DNA of 64,000 nucleotides. Origin: Candidatus Marinacidobacterales bacterium (GTDB lineage Bacteria; Acidobacteriota; Vicinamibacteria; Marinacidobacterales; SMYC01). The notes under the pieces were generated by a model. That model saw nothing but the letters and a program-made list of their open reading frames with translations, had not been told where the DNA came from and made no database searches. Positions 16,343 through 62,923 of this stretch are shown in pieces (the stretch's first letter is position 1; every line of letters begins with the position of its first letter). The DNA is taken from the NCBI GenBank assembly GCA_965224085.1, contig CBDCYI010000005.1, positions 1,376,001-1,440,000 on the forward strand, in the 5' to 3' direction. A program made the translations under genes and the position numbers.

Positions 16343-18076
16343 TCAATCGACGCGCGACGGAACGTGACTCGTAGAGGCGCCGCTGTCGACATCCATGGGC
16401 AGGGCTTGCACGATCCCCCCTCCCTCTTTCACGACATAGAGGTGATCCGCGTCGAGTGGCCCCAGATTCTCTATCGTCCCGCTCGGCCATAGAAGCTCCA
16501 CCCGCTCCACCCCCAAAGTGTTTCCCAGGCCGAAGTGAACGCGCAGATCGTTGTGGCTGCAGTAACTGTAGGCACCGTGCACGTCTCGCAGTTGCTGACG
16601 GCCCGCAGCGTGAATCCGCACCCGCGTCCCGATGCCGTCGCGGTTGGCTTCACGCCCGACGGCCCTTATTGCCAGCATGTGATTCTGGTGTACCCCGTCG
16701 TTTCTCAGCAGGTTGGGCGACGCTCGCGAGTTGGTCACGAGGAGGTCCACGTCGCCGTCGTTGTCGTAATCACCGAATGCTGTTCCACGGCTCGAGCGGC
16801 TGAGCTCGAAGTGGCCGTCCGAGATTTCGCTCACGTCTTCGAATCGCCCGCGCCCATCGTTGTTGAATAGGAGGTTCGGCTGCTCAAAGAACACGCCGTC
16901 ATCGACGAAGTCGACGGTCTCCAGTACGTGGCCGTTTGCCACGAAGGCATCCAGATCGCCGTCGTTGTCGTAGTCGACGAAACCGGTCCCGAATCCTACG
17001 TACATCAAGCTCGGCTCGCCCATTCCGGACCGAGTGGTCTCGTCCACGAACCAGGCGCGTCCGGTGTTCCGATAGAGGGTGTTCGTCTCGTCGTAATAGT
17101 TGGTCACGAAGAGGTCCAGCAGACCATCTCCGTCGTAGTCGCCGAAGTCGACGCCCATCCCCGCCTCGGCGAGCCCGTCCTCGCTGAAAGCGACGCCCGA
17201 CAGGAGGCCGACCTCTTCGAAGCTGCCATCACCGCGATTTCGCCAGAGAAAGTTGGGTACCGAGTCGTTCGCGACGTAAATGTCCGTGTCGCTGTCGTTG
17301 TCGTAGTCGACCATCACGACGCCCAGACCTTTGCCCTCGTTGGTGGAGACGCCCGCCGAGCGGGTCACGTCGCTGAAAGACCCGTTCCCCTCGTTCCGGT
17401 ACAGGACATCGGGGAGACCGTGATAGACCCGCGGGTGACAGTAGTCTCGTCCGCCTGTCTCGGGACCCCCACAGACGATGTGATTCTCGAGACTGAAGTC
17501 GACATAGTTGGCGACGTAGAGATCGAGATCCCCGTCGTTGTCGATGTCACCGAACGCGCTACTCGTGCCCCAGAGCTCGCAACCGAGGCCGGCCTCCGCG
17601 GTCACGTCGGCGAACGTTCCGTCACCGTTGTTCCGGTACAGCACGTCGGGCCCGAAGTTGGTCACGTACAGGTCGAGGAACCCATCGTTGTCGTAGTCGG
17701 CGACCGCCGTCCCCATGCCGTAGCCGGGATCCCCCACCCGCGCGTGCGCCGTCACGTCGGTGAACGTGCCGTCCCCGTTGTTGCGATACAAAACGTTCCG
17801 GGGGGTCGTTTGGGTCTGAAAACCGGGGAGCGCCGCGCCGTTGACGAGATACAGATCGAGGAACCCGTCGTCGTCGTAGTCGAGCAGCGCGGCTCCCGCT
17901 CCGACGATCTCCGCCATGTACTTTTCCCCTGAGGAGCCCCGGACGTGGGTGAAGTCGATACCGGCGGCCTCGGTCCGATCGGTGAACGTCACCGGCACCG
18001 CATGGCTCGACTGTAGAAGGGTCGCGGAAGCGGTCCCGAGGCAAAGGATGGTTGCCAGGAGCGCAGGGTGAGGCAT
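16343..18076 (-). CDS. CRTAC1 family protein (FG-GAP/VCBS repeats + ASPIC/UnbV)
   Basis: Multiple DYDNDGxxDLYV repeats, LYRNNGDGTF, C-terminal NRDGIG...SYCSHNDLRVHFGLG. Confidence 0.92.
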   Translation of the reverse strand: MPHPALLATILCLGTASATLLQSSHAVPVTFTDRTEAAGIDFTHVRGSSGEKYMAEIVGAGAALLDYDDDGFLDLYLVNGAALPGFQTQTTPRNVLYRNNGDGTFTDVTAHARVGDPGYGMGTAVADYDNDGFLDLYVTNFGPDVLYRNNGDGTFADVTAEAGLGCELWGTSSAFGDIDNDGDLDLYVANYVDFSLENHIVCGGPETGGRDYCHPRVYHGLPDVLYRNEGNGSFSDVTRSAGVSTNEGKGLGVVMVDYDNDSDTDIYVANDSVPNFLWRNRGDGSFEEVGLLSGVAFSEDGLAEAGMGVDFGDYDGDGLLDLFVTNYYDETNTLYRNTGRAWFVDETTRSGMGEPSLMYVGFGTGFVDYDNDGDLDAFVANGHVLETVDFVDDGVFFEQPNLLFNNDGRGRFEDVSEISDGHFELSRSSRGTAFGDYDNDGDVDLLVTNSRASPNLLRNDGVHQNHMLAIRAVGREANRDGIGTRVRIHAAGRQQLRDVHGAYSYCSHNDLRVHFGLGNTLGVERVELLWPSGTIENLGPLDADHLYVVKEGGGIVQALPMDVDSGASTSHVPSRVD

Positions 18077-18221
18077 CTCTCGGTGTCTCTGTCTCGTCGC
18101 AACGGCGCTGGCCGAGGACGACGGCGCTTCAACGGGCACCGACCGCATGCTAGCATCTGCCGAAAACGGCTGTCAATCTCACGAATCGCTTGATGGTAGG
18201 CGTTATGATGCCGATCTCGGC

Positions 18222-19871
18222 ATGAGCGGATATCGTCTGTCTACGATCGCGCTCCTGGCCGGGCTCGTTCTGCCCGCGGCCGATTCGATGCACTTCGAAG
18301 ACGTCACCAAAGAAGCCGGCCTCACCTCCCCCAACATGTTCGGGGGCATCGACGAGAAGCGCTACATCCTCGAGACCACGGGCACCGGCGCGGTTTTCTT
18401 CGACTACGACGAGGACGGAGACCAGGACCTTTTCCTCGTCAACGGAACCCGACTGGACTACAGCGAGCTCGCGAGTCCTTCCAACACGCTCTACCGAAAC
18501 GACGGTCTCGGTTCGTTTACGGACGTGACCGGTGCCGCGGGCCTCGAGCGCTACGGTTGGGGCCAGGGCGGGGCGGCATCGGATATCGACAACGACGGCG
18601 ATCTGGACCTCTTCGTAAGCTACTACGGTCCGGACCTTCTGTACCGCAATAACGGAGATGGGACCTTCACCGAGGTCGGGGAAGCGGCCGGTGTGGCCGA
18701 TCGCGGTTGGAGCACCAGCGCCGCGCTCGCCGACTACGACCGGGACGGTTACAACGATCTCTTCGTCGCCAGCTACGTGGAGTTCGATCGGGACACGATC
18801 CCGGGGCCCGGGGAGGCTTCGAATTGCTTTTTCGTCGGCATCCCCGTGTTGTGCGGACCCAGAGGACTCCCGCCGGCGCGAAGCCGCTTGTACCGTGGTC
18901 GCGCGGACGGCACGTTCGAAGATCGAAGCGGTGTTTCGGGCGTCGCCGGGGAGGCTTTCTACGGCCTGGGTGCGGTTTGGGGGGATCTCGACAACGACGG
19001 CGACGTCGATCTGTACGTCGCCAACGACCAGACGCCGAACAACCTCTACCGAAACGAGGGTTCGGGGAAATTCACGGAGATCGCACTTTCCGCCGGCGTC
19101 GCGTACAACGCCGACGGGCGGGAGCAGGCCGGCATGGGAGTGGATCTCGGCGACTACGACAACGACGGCTGGCTGGACATTCACGTCACGAACTTCTTCC
19201 ACGATCACAACACGCTGTATCAGAACACCGGAAGGGGATTTTTTCGCGACGTGAGCTTTCCGTCCGGACTCGGCAACGATAGCTTCTTGTACCTCGGTTG
19301 GGGGACGGGCTTTCACGACTTCGACGCGGACGGTCGGCTGGATGTTTTTGTGGTCAACGGCCATATCTACCCGGAGCTCTCCTCGGAGCAGGTCGACAGC
19401 GACTACGCGCAGCGCGACCTGGTGTTCCTTCAGCGAGACGACGGGCGTTTCGAAGAGGTCGGTCGAAGCGCGGGACTCTCGCAGATGCAGGTCGGACGGG
19501 GAGCCGCGTTCGCCGATTACGACAACGACGGCGACGTCGATGTCGTGGTGACCAACATGAACGCCTTGCCGTCTCTGCTGCGAAACGACTCGCCCCCGCA
19601 TCACTGGATCGGACTGCGCCTCGTCGGAAGAGACAGCGCCCGCGATGCCCTGGGAGCGCGGGTCACGCTGGTGGCCGATGAGCGGACCCAGATGCGGGAG
19701 GTCCGGAGCGGCGCCAGCTATCTCTCGCAGAGCGACCTACGGCTGTTCTTCGGGCTCGGCGAGCGCGAGAGCGTCGATCGGGTCGAGATTCGCTGGCCCC
19801 GGGGCCGGTTGCAGGTTCTGGAGCGGCTTCGACTCGACGGCTACACCGTGGTCCTCGAACCACGTCCATGA
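18222..19871 (+). CDS. CRTAC1 family protein (FG-GAP/VCBS repeats + ASPIC/UnbV)
   Basis: DYDxDGxxDL repeats, CGPRGL, C-terminal SYLSQSDLRLFFGLG; divergent from its paralogue. Confidence 0.92.
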   Translation: MSGYRLSTIALLAGLVLPAADSMHFEDVTKEAGLTSPNMFGGIDEKRYILETTGTGAVFFDYDEDGDQDLFLVNGTRLDYSELASPSNTLYRNDGLGSFTDVTGAAGLERYGWGQGGAASDIDNDGDLDLFVSYYGPDLLYRNNGDGTFTEVGEAAGVADRGWSTSAALADYDRDGYNDLFVASYVEFDRDTIPGPGEASNCFFVGIPVLCGPRGLPPARSRLYRGRADGTFEDRSGVSGVAGEAFYGLGAVWGDLDNDGDVDLYVANDQTPNNLYRNEGSGKFTEIALSAGVAYNADGREQAGMGVDLGDYDNDGWLDIHVTNFFHDHNTLYQNTGRGFFRDVSFPSGLGNDSFLYLGWGTGFHDFDADGRLDVFVVNGHIYPELSSEQVDSDYAQRDLVFLQRDDGRFEEVGRSAGLSQMQVGRGAAFADYDNDGDVDVVVTNMNALPSLLRNDSPPHHWIGLRLVGRDSARDALGARVTLVADERTQMREVRSGASYLSQSDLRLFFGLGERESVDRVEIRWPRGRLQVLERLRLDGYTVVLEPRP

Positions 19872-25625: not shown

Positions 25626-25674
25626 AGCCTTGTTCGGGGTACTTTCGACTGACACTCCCGGCCGAAGGCATTTT

Positions 25675-27063
25675 TCATGATATGGATTGATCGGGAACGA
25701 GGCTGAAGCCGAGTCGGGTAGCTTTGCGTCGGAGATTACTCAGGAGGCGTTGCTGGTATTGCCTTTCATAGGCGTCCTGACCGAGCTCAATGAACTCCTC
25801 TCCAGTCGCAAGCATGCGGAAGTAGATGGTCGCTATTTTACGGGCGGTAGCTGTGATGGCCTTTGGAGCACCTCGTCGCGATCGGATTCGTCGATAGAAA
25901 GCGCCGAGCGCGGTTTGGGTATTGCGGACAGCGCACGCGGCGAGGCGAAAGAGTTTTGCAGCACGACTGGAGCTCATTGGGGTGGCCCGGCGAAAGATTC
26001 GACCAGCGGACTCCTTATTATTCGGTGCGAGAGCTAGCCATGAGGTGAAGTGCTTGTCACTTTTCCACGGGCTCATGTCGCAACCGGTTTCTCCTACGAG
26101 CTGCAGAACGGCATAGCTACCTAAGCCGGGAACCCTGGTTAGGTCCACCCCCGTGAGTCCCAATAGAGACTCAGCGAGCGGAAAGCGCGGCCCGTTGCCG
26201 CTACGCGCTCGCCGTGTCCGTGGTTTCGGCTTAGGCCGAGCGTCCTGAGGCCGGGTCTCCAATTTGGACAGGCATCTCTCGATCCGCTTGTCACAGTCTT
26301 CCATTTTCTCTTGATAGAAATCGTACAACTCCACCGACTGTTGAAGAGCGAAAACATGCTCGCTCCGATAGTTACCTTCTAAGGCTTTCGCGATCGTGGC
26401 CTCATCGTTGTGGCAACGTTCATGCCTCAGTTTTGCTAGGTCACGAGGATCTCGCTCTCCTCTCAAGATCGCTCGGATGATCGCAAGGCCGGTGACTCCG
26501 GTCACGTCGCGCAGGACGTGTTGTAGCTGGAGCCCCATTTGGTTGAGCGCTTTGTGCATATGCTGAATGTGGCGAGCCGCTGACTCCACCAGCGAGCTTC
26601 GTTGGCGGGTGTATGCCCTTAGCTCGCAAATCGCCGATTCCGGCCGAAAGGTTTTTGGGAGTAGCCCGAATGTATGCAGCTGTTGCAGCCACTCCGCATC
26701 CGACACGTCTGACTTGCGCCCAGATACGTTTTTCACTTTGCGAGCATCGACCAGATAGACTTCAAATCCCTCGTCTTCCAACAACTCGTACAGTGGAATC
26801 CAATAAACTCCGGTCGACTCCATCGCCACCGTGCACACGCCGCACGCCTTCAGCCAATTGGCCAGCTCTCGCAGCGAGCATACAAAGCTCTGAAACGTGC
26901 GGACATGTTCGCCCTCAGGAGTGCGCCCCTTCGGGACTGCCGCCACGATTGACTCCGCTCCAATATCAATCCCTGCAGCATCTAGATTTACCGTGTCGAG
27001 CTCGTGCTCCAATTTTTTCCGTCTTGCTTGACGACTGCTTTTTGTCCTGACGCGACGTGCCAT
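25675..27063 (-). CDS. IS110 DEDD recombinase/transposase
   Basis: AGIDIG (D), AMESTGVYW (E), KSDVSDA (DD), LAPNNKESAG (Ser loop), KAITATARKIA; ATG after AAGGAG. Confidence 0.96.
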   Translation of the reverse strand: MARRVRTKSSRQARRKKLEHELDTVNLDAAGIDIGAESIVAAVPKGRTPEGEHVRTFQSFVCSLRELANWLKACGVCTVAMESTGVYWIPLYELLEDEGFEVYLVDARKVKNVSGRKSDVSDAEWLQQLHTFGLLPKTFRPESAICELRAYTRQRSSLVESAARHIQHMHKALNQMGLQLQHVLRDVTGVTGLAIIRAILRGERDPRDLAKLRHERCHNDEATIAKALEGNYRSEHVFALQQSVELYDFYQEKMEDCDKRIERCLSKLETRPQDARPKPKPRTRRARSGNGPRFPLAESLLGLTGVDLTRVPGLGSYAVLQLVGETGCDMSPWKSDKHFTSWLALAPNNKESAGRIFRRATPMSSSRAAKLFRLAACAVRNTQTALGAFYRRIRSRRGAPKAITATARKIATIYFRMLATGEEFIELGQDAYERQYQQRLLSNLRRKATRLGFSLVPDQSIS

Positions 27064-27087
27064 TTCTCGCTCCTTTCGGCGCAACCA

Positions 27088-27236
27088 GGAGAGAGGGGCG
27101 ATTCAAAACATTCTTTCGAACGGGGTCATGCCTCGCGACATGCCACCACGGATACTCCCGCTAACCCTCCAGACCTTGCTGTCAAACGGGCACTGAGCAC
27201 CATCGTACCTTCGGCCTTGACTCCCGGCTGCACTCG
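27088..27236 (-). ncRNA. Putative IS110 bridge RNA (boundaries approximate)
   Basis: Two stem/internal-loop modules; loops contain GGUAC and UUUGACAG (target halves) and UCGAAAG (element end); TAGACT -10-like box at 27242-27247. Confidence 0.72.
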
Positions 27237-27348
27237 ATCGGAGTCTACTTCCTCCCACAGATCTCAAAGGGTCAGTCTCCGATTACCTTCGCCCGCCCGG
27301 GCGATGCCATTGCTGTCAAATTGAGCTGGTGACTGACAGAATGGTCCA

Positions 27349-28053
27349 ATGAAGACCGATGCGCCAAGCTACCACGGCTATCGATTTCCACCGGAAATCA
27401 TCAGCCACGCCGTCTGGCTCTACCACCGATTCTGCGTGAGCTTTCGAAACGTCGAAGAGCTGCTTGCTCAGCGAGGCATCACGGTTTCCTACGAAGCGAT
27501 CCGACTTTGGTGCATCAAGTTCGGGCCGGAATACGCTCGGCGACTGAAGCGTCGGCAGGGTCGCCTTGGTGACACGTGGCTCCTGGACGAGGTCTTCATA
27601 AAGATACAAGGCGAACGCCAATACCTCTGGCGCGCGGTAGACCAAGATGGTGATGTGATTGATATCCTCGTCCAGCCTCGCCGTGATCAGAAAGCCGCCA
27701 AACGATTCTTCCGCAAGCTGTTGAAAGGGCAAGGCCGTCCGCCCTGGCAGCTGGTCACCGACAAACTGAGAAGCTACAGCGCCGCTCACCGCGAGGTCAT
27801 GCCGTCCGTCGTCCACGACACTGACCAGTACAGAAACAACCTAGCCGAAGTCTCGCACGAACCGACGCGACAACGGGAACGACAGATGCGGAAGTTTAAA
27901 ACTCCTGGGCAGGCGCAACGATTCTTGACCGTGCATGGACTCGTGCAAAACCTCTTTCGCGTCGGACGGCATTTGTTGCAAGCGCATCATCATCGGGAGC
28001 TACGAGACCGCGCTTTCATCGTCTGGCAGGAGGTAACCTGTGCCGTCCGATGA
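27349..28053 (+). CDS. IS6 family DDE transposase
   Basis: YRFPPEII, WLLDEV, YLWRAVDQDG, LVTDKLRSY, NNLAEVSH. Confidence 0.97.
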   Translation: MKTDAPSYHGYRFPPEIISHAVWLYHRFCVSFRNVEELLAQRGITVSYEAIRLWCIKFGPEYARRLKRRQGRLGDTWLLDEVFIKIQGERQYLWRAVDQDGDVIDILVQPRRDQKAAKRFFRKLLKGQGRPPWQLVTDKLRSYSAAHREVMPSVVHDTDQYRNNLAEVSHEPTRQRERQMRKFKTPGQAQRFLTVHGLVQNLFRVGRHLLQAHHHRELRDRAFIVWQEVTCAVR

Positions 28054-28185
28054 GAGCAAAGGAAATCAGCTCGACGCAATAGGTTCGCTCGCTCAACGTC
28101 AACTTGACAATACCTGCGATAGCGCGATTTTCGAACTGCCCGGCGCGCGCCGTGATGAATAAAGGGAAGGGACGGGGAGAACACC

Positions 28186-56047: not shown

Positions 56048-59000
56048 ATGAGACAATCTCTGCAAGTCGTTGCCCTGACGCTGTTTACAGTGGGCGCTGG
56101 GCTCCCTATCGCGCCCCCAGCAACACGGACCGCCCAGCGCGCCGAAGCTTCCGCCCAGGCTAATCGCGGCGTCGCCCTGCTCGAACAATTTCGCTTTACC
56201 GAAGCCATCGATGCGTTCGAAGCTGTCGTGGCGCTCGAGCCGAATGAGGCGGCCGGACACATCAACCTCGGGATCGCCTATTTCAACGAACGCGACTTCG
56301 ACAAAGCCCTCGAGTCGTTCGAGCGGGCCCGCGAGCTCGATGCCTCGAGTCCCTACGTTCACTACAACCTCGGGCTCGTTTACAAGCTGCAGGGTGAAAC
56401 AGAGGAGGCGGTGGCGGCGTTTACGCGCGTGCTCCCGATCGATCCGGTCGACTCGATGACGCATTACTATCTCGGTACGCTCTACGCCAATCTTGGTCGC
56501 CTCGAGGACGCAGAGACCACTTTGCGGCGCACGATCGAGCTCCAGCCGAACAACGAGTCCGCCCATTTCAGCCTCGGGAATATTCTCATCCGACAAGGAC
56601 GGCGTGACGAGGGGCGCGCCGAGCTTCGTGTTTTTCAAGATCTGAAGAAAAATTTTCCGGGAGAGGGGACGTCGGCGGGCCTCCAATATACTGAGCTCGG
56701 AAAATATGCCGAAGCCGTGGAAGTAGTCCAGGATCAGCTTCAACCCATGACTCCGGAACGCACCACCGAGACTTCACTTCGTTTCACCGAAACGACCTCC
56801 GACGCCGGTCTTTCCCTCCCAGCGCTCGAAGCTCACAGTGCACTTCCCGAACGCCTCGACGTTTCCGAGTACACACTCGAGTGGATACGGGGTAAAGCGC
56901 TCCCCCGGCTCGGGACCGGTCTTGCCTTTCGGGATCTCGATGGCGATGACGATCCCGATATGCTGTTCGTCAAAAGCGGAGCTCCGGTTTTTTTGAGAAA
57001 CACGAATGGTCGTTTCGAAGCGCTCGACGCGACCGGGCTTCCCCAGGAAGGCCATTTCGTCGGCGTCGTCGTGGGCGACGTGGACAACGATCTCGACGGA
57101 GACGTCTACCTCACGGGCGCAGGGCCGAACGCGCTCTTCCTCAATGACGGCAGAGGACGTTTCACGCCATCCGAAGACGAAACCGTTCAAAGCGACGACG
57201 TGTCGGTGAGCGCTACTTTTGCCGATGTCGATCACGACGGCGACCTCGATCTCTACGTCGCGAACTACCTTTCTCAGAAAGCGCCGCCAAACGTCGACGT
57301 GCTCGTACTGCCGGACGATCTTCCTGGAGCGCCCAATCGTATGTATCAGAATAACGGCGACGGATCGTTTACCGAGATTTCAGCGGAGACCCGTACCGAT
57401 GGTGGCGCGCGCCGAAGCCTCGGGACGGTCTTTTCCGATCTCGACAACGATCGCGACATCGATTTCGTCGTCGTCAATGATGGAGCGCCCGCGCTCGCAT
57501 TCTCGAACGATCGTGTCGGGACTTTTACGGAGAGCTCTCGGGTTTGGGGACTCGAGACGAGCTCGCGGATGCGCGGGCTGGATGCGGCGGATTTCGATCG
57601 GGATGGCAGCTTCGATCTGTTCCTGACATCCGAAGGCGCTGCGTTGAACAGTCTCTTGCGAGGACCGGCCCAGGGCGGGTTCCGACCCGACGTGCTCTCA
57701 CCCGGACTTCTCGCCGCGGGTTCGCCGGGGGCGCGCTATGGAGTGAGCTTCGTCGATGCAGACAACGACGGCGATTTGGATCTGCTCGTTGTCGTCAACG
57801 AAGCGGAGGCGCTTGCTATTTATTATGAGAACACGCCGAACGGCTACGTCCGTGCTCTATCACTTCAAGCAGCGGTGGAGGGAGAAGGGCGCGCTTTGGC
57901 ACTTGCCGATGTGGACGCCGACGGTGATGTGGACGTGGTCGTCGCCACGGACCTCGGAGAGCTCGTCTATTTTCGCAACGACGGCGGCAACGAAAAGGGC
58001 TTCCTCCGCATCCGGGCGCGCGGACTGCGCAGCAATCTCGATGGACTCGGAGCAAAAGTCGAGGTCAAAGCGGGCGCGGCCGGTACCAAGCGCGAGGTGC
58101 GCTCCTCGAGCGGCTATTTCTCGCAGAACGAGCTCCCGCTTCATTTCGGTCTCGGAGACAGCCCGCGCGCGGACTACGTACGTTTTCTCTGGCCGGGAGG
58201 CGTCAAGCAAATCGAGATGGAGCTCGAGAGCGGTCAAACGGCTTCAATCGAGGAGCTCAACCGCAAGGGCACGTCGTGCCCGATTCTCTATGCTTGGGAT
58301 GGCGAGAAAATCCGATTCGTTACGGACTTTCTCGGAGGGAGCGCGCTCGGATATCTCCACGCTCGGAACAAGTACAACTATCCCGATACGGCCGAGACCG
58401 TCAAGATGGAGTCCTTCCCTCTCGTCGCTCGCGACGGGCGCTTCGAGATGCGCTGGGTCAATCAGCTCGAAGAAGTCCTCATCTACGATCGGGCTTCCCT
58501 TGTCGTCGTCGACCATCCCAAGGAGTTCGAAGTGTTCCCGAACGAGCGCCTCATGCCGGGGCCCCCTTTTCCCGATGACCGTCTTTACGCCGTGGCGGAG
58601 ATGCGCGTGCCGGAGGGCGCCGTCGACCATCGAGGCAAAGATGTCAGTGCCCTCATCGCGGAGAAGGATCGCCTCTATCCCGACGGCTTCGATCTTCTCG
58701 AGCTCAAAGGCTACGCGGAACAGCATGCGTTGGTGCTGGACCTAGGTGCTCTCGAGCCCGACGAGAGCTACGTGCTGCTCTTATATGGCTGGGTCGACTA
58801 TGCCGATTCGAGCTCGAACCTCGCTGCATCCCAAGCGGGCGTCACTTTGGTGACGCCTTATCTCGAAGTCGGCGACGCTGCGGGAAATTTCGAATTGGGT
58901 CTTCCACAAATGGGCTTTCCCGCGGGGCTGCCAAAGACCATGCTCGTCGACCTCTCAGGTCTCGTGACGCCCGAGAAGAATCGCGTGCGTATCACCACGA

Positions 59001-62117: not shown

Positions 62118-62923
62118 GGTACTGTCAAATTGAGCTGGTGACTGACAGAATGGTCCAATGAAGACCGATGCGCCAAGCTACCACGGCTATCGATTTCCAC
62201 CGGAAATCATCAGCCACGCCGTCTGGCTCTACCACCGATTCTGCGTGAGCTTTCGAAACGTCGAAGAGCTGCTTGCTCAGCGAGGCATCACGGTTTCCTA
62301 CGAAGCGATCCGACTTTGGTGCATCAAGTTCGGGCCGGAATACGCTCGGCGACTGAAGCGTCGGCAGGGTCGCCTTGGTGACACGTGGCTCCTGGACGAG
62401 GTCCTCATAAAGATACAAGGCGAACGCCAATACCTCTGGCGCGCGGTAGACCAAGATGGTGATGTGATTGATATCCTCGTCCAGCCTCGCCGTGATCAGA
62501 AAGCCGCCAAACGATTCTTCCGCAAGCTGTTGAAAGGGCAAGGCCGTCCGCCCTGGCAGCTGGTCACCGACAAACTGAGAAGCTACAGCGCCGCTCACCG
62601 CGAGGTCATGCCGTCCGTCGTCCACGACACTGACCAGTACAGAAACAACCTAGCCGAAGTCTCGCACGAACCGACGCGACAACGGGAACGACAGATGCGG
62701 AAGTTTAAAGCTCCTGGGCAGGCGCAACGATTCTTGACCGTGCATGGACTCGTGCAAAACCTCTTTCGCGTCGGACGGCATTTGTTGCAAGCGCATCATC
62801 ATCGGGAGCTACGAGACCGCGCTTTCATCGTCTGGCAGGAGGTAACCTGTGCCGTCCGATGAGAGCAAAGGAAATCAGCTCGACGCAATAGGTTCGCTCG
62901 CTCAACGTCAACTTGACAATACC
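62118..62923 (+). mobile_element. IS6-family element copy 2, intact (806 bp)
   Basis: Left IR GGTACTGTCAAATTGA, right IR TCAACTTGACAATACC; near-identical to copy 1. Confidence 0.97.
62158..62862 (+). CDS. IS6 family DDE transposase
   Basis: Same protein as 27349-28053 except F/L and T/A substitutions. Confidence 0.97.
   Translation: MKTDAPSYHGYRFPPEIISHAVWLYHRFCVSFRNVEELLAQRGITVSYEAIRLWCIKFGPEYARRLKRRQGRLGDTWLLDEVLIKIQGERQYLWRAVDQDGDVIDILVQPRRDQKAAKRFFRKLLKGQGRPPWQLVTDKLRSYSAAHREVMPSVVHDTDQYRNNLAEVSHEPTRQRERQMRKFKAPGQAQRFLTVHGLVQNLFRVGRHLLQAHHHRELRDRAFIVWQEVTCAVR

Follow-up and report, generated by a model that had tools for sequence, protein, structure and literature searches.

How does one insertion sequence (IS) come to lie exactly inside the terminal inverted repeat of another, and what selects that site? 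The question is raised by a 64,000-nucleotide stretch of a Candidatus Marinacidobacterales genome, hereafter the window (positions 1376001–1440000 of contig C5 in the source genome, G000), which we analyzed in the context of 55 genomes of the order; labels beginning with G denote genomes and those beginning with L denote loci. The window holds two copies of an IS6-family element, one intact and one split by an IS110-family element that we call IS110a. The original prediction, made from the window alone, proposed that IS110a is programmed by an RNA to enter the left end of this IS6 element. Our analysis makes it highly probable that IS110a is an active element whose two-loop guide RNA, of the bridge RNA or seekRNA kind, is set for the IS6 repeat terminus, and that it recombines at a CT dinucleotide.

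The intact, unoccupied IS6 element (copy 2) lies at 62118–62923 on the plus strand (806 bp). Its left repeat starts with GGTACTGTCAAATTGAG and matches the right repeat, GGTATTGTCAAGTTGAC, at 14 of 17 positions. When up to three mismatches were allowed, the 17-mer of this repeat was found four times in the window, against an expectation of 0.07. Copy 1 is 99.75% identical to copy 2 and is interrupted near its left end: the outer 6 bp of its left repeat, GGTACT, which comprise GGTA and a first CT core (25638–25643, plus strand), are followed by TTCGAC, where IS110a begins. IS110a spans 1669 bp (25644–27312, minus strand), with GCCATTG ending at 27312. The remainder of copy 1 (27313–28114, plus strand) resumes with a second CT followed by GTCAAATTGAG and extends up to the right repeat; this resumption of the repeat, CTGTCAAATTGAG, occupies 27313–27325. 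Only CT is duplicated at the two junctions, the preceding bases being A and G and the following bases T and G. These boundaries agree with those originally predicted for an exact insertion with duplication of CT alone.

A junction census was performed using patterns of 17–18 nt that were defined on the element ends and not on the flanks. It covered the whole of G000 and loci of eight other genomes, namely four of the six IS110a copies in G004, one locus each in G053 and G054, and 23 of the 30 loci from a search with a 64-bp derivative described below (four of those 30 belong to G000, already covered by the whole-genome scan, and three partial matches were excluded). All 61 unique left junctions read (G/T)(G/A)TACT, comprising 59 GGTACT, one TGTACT and one GATACT, and all 37 unique right junctions read CTGT(C/T)AA, comprising 26 CTGTCAAGTT, eight CTGTCAAATT and the single-base variants CTGTCAACTT, CTGTCAAATG and CTGTTAAGTT, one each. 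Every readable end of IS110a in G000 abuts GGTACT or CTGTCAA, and the outer flanks are all different. The predicted programming for IS6 left ends is supported by these data, and no copy in the census sits in a site unrelated to GGTA-CT-GTCAAA.

Positions +9 to +11 (TTG) are also conserved at the sites, beyond the reach of any RNA pairing. This indicates termini of IS6-type repeats, complete or remnant, rather than chance occurrences of a 12-mer. Two right-hand contexts, termed type 4 and type 10, had been considered as whole insertion sequences; this was rejected, as G000 shows short IS6-like end fragments there, followed by ordinary genes for an NrtR-like regulator and an M19 peptidase. Taken together, natural sites show an effective target length of about 12 bp, with tolerated mismatches at −4 and −3 on the left and at +5 and +8 on the right. 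IS110a is also present in G004, which belongs to another family of the same order: its recombinase is 100% identical, as is the full 1669 bp (L001, L013, L020 and L027), and the four copies read have the same junctions as in G000, one of them with TGTACT.

To characterize the left non-coding end, which lies upstream of the recombinase gene, we aligned the corresponding ends of 16 relatives whose recombinases are 40–53% identical and which come from Acidobacteriota, Dehalococcoidia and other groups. The consensus structure revealed a conserved two-loop RNA core of the bridge/seek type (27088–27224, minus strand) composed of two similar modules, each consisting of a stem, a 5′ loop strand, a hairpin UGGUG...CCCGU, a 3′ loop strand and the closing stem. 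It comprises 19 consensus pairs, nine of them with compensatory changes, and 95.4% of cells are paired, versus 84.7% in shuffles and 31–45% when the partners were slid. At alignment columns 13-54 and 24-43 the pairs are nearly always G-U, which on the opposite strand would become A-C; the recombinase strand is therefore the one from which the RNA is read. The single-sequence fold of the non-coding end (z = −2.05) is not decisive by itself, and an Rfam search of the element returned no family, its sole match being Atu_C7 at an E value of 4.6, far below the threshold of that family. A metagenome contig from sequencing run X14 carries an element variant that differs by five substitutions and a deletion within the RNA region (27105–27137), and its changes at 27131/27132 and 27137 leave the loop-2 hairpin paired.

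The loop strands correspond to the DNA around the insertion. In loop 1, the 5′ strand GGUAC (27205–27209, minus strand) complements the G+TACC that lies right of the core on the recombinase-sense strand, and the 3′ strand UUUGACAG (27179–27186, minus strand) is identical to the sense-strand left flank TTTGAC plus the core AG. In loop 2, the 3′ strand UCGAAAG (27113–27119, minus strand), the donor guide, is identical to the right end of the element, TCGAA, plus the core AG. As 7-nt guides, these are UUGACAG in loop 1 (UUUGACAG with the preceding U) and UCGAAAG in loop 2. GGUAC and UUUGACAG had been predicted to face each other across an internal loop; the consensus structure places them so, at alignment columns 14–23 and 44–53, between the helices 9–13/54–58 and 24–29/39–43.

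Guides and flanks covary among the relatives. In module 1, the heptamer that follows CCCGN is identical to left flank and core in 10 of the 16 relatives; in module 2, the heptamer that follows CCCGU reproduces the element's own right end and core in 14 of them. When guides were swapped among relatives in 20 permutations, the corresponding counts were 0–1 and 0–2; the search windows left out the guides themselves. Nearly all guides end in AG, and a relative in G005 with an AA core has both guides ending in AA. Several relatives (among L040, L043, L045, L036, L064 and L047, from Acidobacteriaceae and Dehalococcoidia) are set for ...(TGTCA)TCCTGAG; this word belongs to a widespread short repeat, which makes them another case of repeat targeting.

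The same site is used by a 64-bp element that lacks a recombinase (GGTACT, 64 bp, CTGTCAA), of which G000 holds 19. Its left-end part of 43 nt is identical to IS110a at 36 positions, including the terminal hairpin and GCCATTG, and its right-end part of 21 nt is identical at 9, including the terminal TTCGA. Both copies of the subterminal inverted repeat of IS110a are kept and both are altered alike (GAGTGA for GACTGA), which again points to a paired feature. If joined, the ends would read TGCCATTG-CT-TTCGA, the same as IS110a over the part matched by the donor guide. The 64-bp element was found at 97–100% identity in 10 of the 55 genomes of the order, with at least 16 matches each in G053 and G049, 13 in G040, 12 in G054, six in G042 and two each in G004, G005 and G007. 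G045 has a weak partial match, with which the search tally becomes 11 genomes, and G052 has a partial match only. At the 23 loci outside G000, the left flank is GGTACT or GATACT and the right flank CTGT(C/T)AA, followed by about 10 different right-hand sequences; the miniature has inserted independently into different host elements. The 64-nt query revealed no full-length parent with these exact ends in the 55 genomes. As a derivative of this size, the element defines a natural minimal donor. The identity of the 1669-bp element across families, and of the 64-bp element across several genera, points to recent horizontal spread.

Several observations weigh against an active, RNA-programmed IS110a. 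The 8-nt match taken alone is weak, because a word of that length occurred in 97 of 2000 shuffles of the non-coding end (about 5%). Among 12 relatives with a defined right flank, the rule for the 5′ guide is exact in only three (IS110a, L036 and L032); it matches at four of five positions in G005 and does not hold in the others, six copies of one family among them, with the register in relatives read by eye from the alignment. The two segments originally named lie in the loop whose 3′ strand tracks left flank and core in 10 of 16 relatives; for the 5′ strand, the original interpretation is corrected by these counts. Furthermore, no RNA segment recognizing the left-end donor side (CAATGG...) was found in the loop-2 5′ strand and neighboring segments of IS110a, G049, G045, L036 and L037, where no consistent rule emerged.

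Both the chance level of the 8-nt match and the failing 5′ rule would fit a recombinase that reads GGTACTGTCAA directly, the RNA matches being coincidental. We consider such protein-only recognition very improbable. The loop strands covary exactly with flanks and ends in 10 and 14 of 16 relatives, against 0–2 in the controls, the core dinucleotide covaries as well (AA in G005), and RNA dependence has been demonstrated experimentally for IS621 and ISEc21 in the excerpts of PMC11208160 and PMC11187229 on which we draw. The case for a guide beyond chance is made by the insertion sites together with the covariation in relatives, and not by the 8-letter match alone.

A second set of contrary observations concerns the miniature, which is abundant in genomes without IS110a. 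No recombinase match at E ≤ 1e-40 was obtained in G040, despite its 13 miniature matches, or in G007; G053, with at least 16 miniatures, has one truncated recombinase copy only; and G042, G049 and G005 have only relatives of about 50% identity, those read in G049 and G005 differing in the donor guide. Many miniature copies may have spread together with their host elements. Carried further, this would mean that there were few entries into IS6-type repeats and that copies then multiplied as occupied IS6 elements or larger units transposed, duplicated or were transferred. Such hitchhiking would fit the 100% identity of the 64-bp element across 10 of 55 genomes, some without IS110a, and the recurrence of outer flanks: one 20-nt left flank occurs twice in G049 and also in G005, and another is shared by G005, G040 and G042. 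In addition, with the miniature inside, 12 of 17 positions of the outer end agree with the IS6 right repeat, so that the IS6 transposase might still use this end. We nevertheless regard hitchhiking as an unlikely alternative to programmed insertion. The same 64-bp sequence adjoins about 10 different right-hand sequences and is present in both IS6 clades (99.5% and 97%), its sequence variants do not track IS6 haplotypes, and full-length IS110a adjoins at least eight different right-hand sequences in G000 and four in G004. Hitchhiking accounts for copy number, but not for site specificity or guide covariation.

The remaining contrary observations concern expression and the circular intermediate, whose abutted ends create a promoter in bridge RNA and seekRNA systems. 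The joined-end junction CCATTGCTTTCGA occurs zero times in the assembly and in none of the matched contigs, although contigs cannot show rare circles. No sigma-70-like promoter was detected in the integrated element, nor, even with 8 of 12 matches accepted, across the computed junction; host promoters may differ. We regard the absent circle junction and junction promoter as a weak negative. RNA-library contigs from two sponge-labelled metatranscriptome runs of one study cover 27051–27246, 26939–27227 and parts of the recombinase gene. They are compatible with transcription of the RNA region, but DNA carry-over is possible and weighs against taking them as proof. All sequencing-run matches are contigs, which are uninformative about RNA ends, strand and rare circles and whose uncovered parts carry no meaning. 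Some runs that hold the element are labelled as sponge metagenome.

Activity of IS110a is supported by seven near-identical full-length copies with intact open reading frames (ORFs), which differ at 0–2 bases and are present in G000 besides truncated ones, and by identical copies in G004. As separate observations, relatives were noted in head-to-tail tandems that preserve the joined ends, in G005 (L004 and L015) as TTAGG-AA-ACCTTCG and in G045 (L006 and L024) as TTAGG-AG-CGGCCC. One locus in G000 (L118, C5:945300–948200) contains a rearranged IS110a in an IS6 left repeat, in which query positions 1–355 and 356–1669 are split by about 62 nt that include a duplicate of IS110a positions 397–439.

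A mechanism that would link the observed site specificity, RNA structure and guide–flank covariation can be proposed. The upstream non-coding end of IS110a would encode the two-loop guide RNA, with loop 1 set for the 12-bp terminus GGTA-CT-GTCAAR of IS6-family repeats. Its 3′ strand UUUGACAG would pair with CTGTCAAA and its 5′ strand GGUAC with the other strand of GGTAC, while loop 2, through UCGAAAG, would match the element's own right end and core. After excision, the DEDD recombinase would use the CT core to recombine the abutted element ends (...CCATTG-CT-TTCGA...) with the target. Recombination at this core would place IS110a 6 bp inside the IS6 repeat, in one orientation and with CT alone duplicated. 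The 64-bp derivative, which keeps both subterminal repeats and the donor core, would use the same site and is most likely moved in trans. Circle formation, dependence on the RNA in this host and trans-mobilization are the steps that we infer.

The occupancy of IS6 repeats in G000 is high, with 33 occupied junctions versus 10 empty GGTACTGTCAA words, all 10 in repeat-like contexts. Among 27 full-length copies of the main IS6 element, 16 are occupied (13 by the miniature, one by a truncated miniature and two by IS110a). The 11 empty copies comprise six with the cognate site and five with a changed site (three GGTATT, one GTAAAA and one TTCGAA), so that 16 of 22 copies with a CT-core site are occupied. 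The core appears to be required: TT-core repeats, that is, all listed IS6 right repeats (GGTATT) and the three full-length left repeats with GGTATT, are never occupied by IS110a. The changed-site copies lie at C4:1695373, C4:1577081, C5:679831, C5:1926799 and C9:495963 of G000 and read GGTACTTTCGAATTG, GGTACTGTAAAATTG and, in three cases, GGTATTGTCAAATTG. GGTACTTTCGAATTG copies the IS110 end TTCGA at two positions and recurs in run X1 as a loose end; it might represent an escape variant or else the footprint of a recombination event.

These numbers bear on whether the insertions affect their host element at all. IS110a and the miniature might simply use a frequent 12-bp word, without effect on IS6 activity or fitness, in which case parasitism would be the wrong term. 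The IS6 ORF beside the insert is indeed intact, and the pseudo-repeat created by the insert keeps 9–12 of 17 positions. On the other hand, the insert cuts the terminal GGTACT off from the remaining repeat, 16 of 22 CT-core copies are occupied and 5 of 11 empty copies are altered inside the 12-bp site. These points are no more than suggestive; we hold a neutral landing pad to be rather improbable. If occupation disables IS6 ends, the inserted elements would act as a brake on IS6 expansion.

A second IS110-family element of 1479 bp, with a recombinase 33% identical to that of IS110a and a 135-bp derivative of its own, uses a neighboring position. Both forms insert between ...GTCAAGTT and GTTGA... 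(GTCAAG-TT-GA), and left flanks ending in GTCAAGTT were found in 21 of 21 cases, at G000 sites on C4, C5, C9 and C11. Many of these sites are IS6-type repeats (GGTATTGTCAAGTT or GGTACTGTCAAGTT), which places the landing point 8 bp further into the same repeat. The non-coding end of the second lineage contains the same RNA module, with UGUCAAGUU after CCCGU. At one locus (L116, G000:C4:168800–171400), a single IS6 element carries the 64-bp element in its left repeat and the second element in its right repeat.

We tentatively put forward a joint reading of these observations, which we judge to be conceivable but short of an even chance. The IS6 repeat would be a shared landing pad on which two IS110 lineages have converged, together with miniatures moved in trans, and where about three quarters of cognate sites are occupied. 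IS6 copies left empty would show an excess of changes in the 12-bp site (core CT to TT, for example), as expected of an arms race between insertion sequences. The same reading would see in the clade of IS110a a third IS110 architecture, in which the RNA lies upstream, as in the IS110 type, and the guide order and subterminal repeats are those of the IS1111 type.

The gene content of both elements supports their family assignment. The IS6 transposase gene of copy 1 (27349–28053, plus strand) is intact, encodes 234 aa and matches Pfam DDE_Tnp_IS240 (PF13610) at 8.4e-37. The host element thus has the features of the IS6 family, namely a length of about 0.8 kb, a single DDE transposase of the IS240/IS26 type and short terminal repeats. 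Among 25 copies in G000, none has 8-bp target duplications with at least 7 of 8 matching flank positions, the best being 6 of 8, whether occupied or empty. Missing IS6 target duplications are compatible with cointegrate-type movement followed by recombination between copies.

IS110a consists of a right non-coding end of 31 nt that ends in ...GTCAGTCGAA on the recombinase strand (25644–25674, minus strand), a DEDD recombinase gene of 462 codons plus stop with AAGGAG 7 nt 5′ of the ATG (25675–27063, minus strand), and the left non-coding end of 249 nt (27064–27312, minus strand). The subterminal inverted repeat reads GACTGAC on the plus strand at 25647–25653, 3 nt from the right end, and GACUGAC on the recombinase strand at 27271–27277, 35 nt from the left end. 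A repeat of 6–10 bp is present in all nine relatives with both ends defined, 2–4 nt from the right end and 31–39 nt from the left end, and its sequence varies between relatives. The recombinase ORF matches Pfam DEDD_Tnp_IS110 (PF01548, 5.8e-25) and Transposase_20 (PF02371, 2.4e-08). Its sole relative in the PDB is the IS621 transposase (E value 1.2e-05), and in the alignment of the two the D of GID, the E of ESTG/EATG and the S of the MS motif all coincide; we take these to be the catalytic residues. A RuvC-like DEDD domain with a C-terminal Tnp domain, the lack of terminal inverted repeats, and oriented, site-specific insertion with a 2-nt core at both boundaries place the element in the IS110 family.

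Comparison with known systems, for which we used excerpts of the cited papers, revealed both shared and divergent features. Like IS621, IS110a has a recombinase with DEDD and Tnp domains and a long upstream non-coding end with a two-internal-loop RNA, in which each loop would pair with both strands around a 2-nt core, one loop serving the target and the other the joined ends. The core of IS621 reads CT in the LE-recombinase-RE orientation, with LT-RD as the left junction, and the guide for the opposite strand is placed first in the loop (PMC11208160, PMC13626964). The duplicated core of IS110a is likewise CT when read opposite to the recombinase gene, whereas on the recombinase strand it is AG. 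The guide identical to left flank plus core is on the 5′ loop strand in IS621 and on the 3′ strand in IS110a, the recombinases differ in length (326 aa in IS621, 10.64898/2026.08.14.744561, versus 462 aa), and for IS110a neither an Rfam family nor a junction promoter emerged from our searches. By inference, the RNA–DNA geometry of IS110a would equal that of IS621 with a CT core if the DNA were turned round, the gene then lying on the other strand.

ISEc21, an IS110-type element, also has its guide RNA upstream, and its natural target lies inside another insertion sequence, in a conserved stretch of IS3-family transposase genes (PMC11187229). An IS110 that targets another insertion sequence is therefore not unprecedented, which corrects the original interpretation on this point. 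The target of ISEc21 is a coding segment, whereas that of IS110a is a terminal inverted repeat, and ISEc21 has the bottom-strand match first in its loop, whereas IS110a has the top-strand complement first (PMC11187229). With regard to minimal donors, a 22-bp donor is enough for IS621 (PMC11208160), and a mini IS of ISEc21 with ends of 29 and 16 bp moves when RNA and transposase are provided (PMC11187229).

In IS1111-type elements, the RNA lies downstream of the transposase gene, right ends are long, subterminal repeats are present (PMC11208160, PMC11187229) and the top-strand complement comes first in the RNA (PMC11187229). When IS110a was compared with both groups, its upstream RNA (249 nt on the left versus 31 nt on the right) agreed with the IS110 group of IS621 and ISEc21, and its guide order, GGUAC before UUUGACAG, was reversed relative to that group. 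Conversely, the 7-bp subterminal repeat and the guide order agreed with the IS1111 group, and the RNA position did not. With core AG on the recombinase strand and the sense-strand complement first in the loop, the order is the one that the excerpt of PMC11187229 gives for IS1111-type elements and not for ISEc21.

IS4321 and IS5075 share subterminal inverted repeats with IS110a, as do other IS1111-type elements; IS4321 and IS5075 differ from it in target family, which is Tn3/Tn21 rather than IS6, and reportedly target Tn21 repeats. Compared with IS1111-type elements, which have a downstream RNA and long right ends, IS110a has its RNA upstream and a right end of 31 nt. The recombinase-less MITEPpu9, linked to the IS110-family ISPpu9, is thought to move with transposase supplied in trans (PMC12288879). 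It resembles the 64-bp element in being short and flanked by IS-end-like sequences, but it carries the small RNA gene ssr9 and targets REP sequences, whereas the 64-bp element consists of two ends only and lies in IS6 repeats.

Each part of the principle thus has a precedent: the mechanism in IS621 and ISEc21, the targeting of mobile elements in ISEc21 and IS4321/IS5075, and the miniature in MITEPpu9. What appears to be new is the IS6-repeat target, the convergence of two lineages, the bare 64-bp and 135-bp derivatives and the mixed IS110/IS1111 architecture. No IS110 element with IS6-repeat specificity was found in the literature, and to this extent the suggested novelty holds; ISfinder and supplementary target tables, which were outside the scope of the search, could list one. 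The system offers a natural example of one mobile element targeting another through RNA, for which a single genome supplies dozens of independent insertions as well as empty sites. In addition, the clade offers a bridge-type RNA with its loop strands in the opposite order to those of IS621, which bears on the engineering of such systems and on the relationship between the IS110 and IS1111 groups.

Apart from these elements, the window contains arrays of repeats of about 57–64 nt at 16697–19589 and 57204–57798. They occur on both strands and encode motifs of the D-x-D-x-D-G type, presumably from repeat proteins resembling FG-GAP/VCBS.

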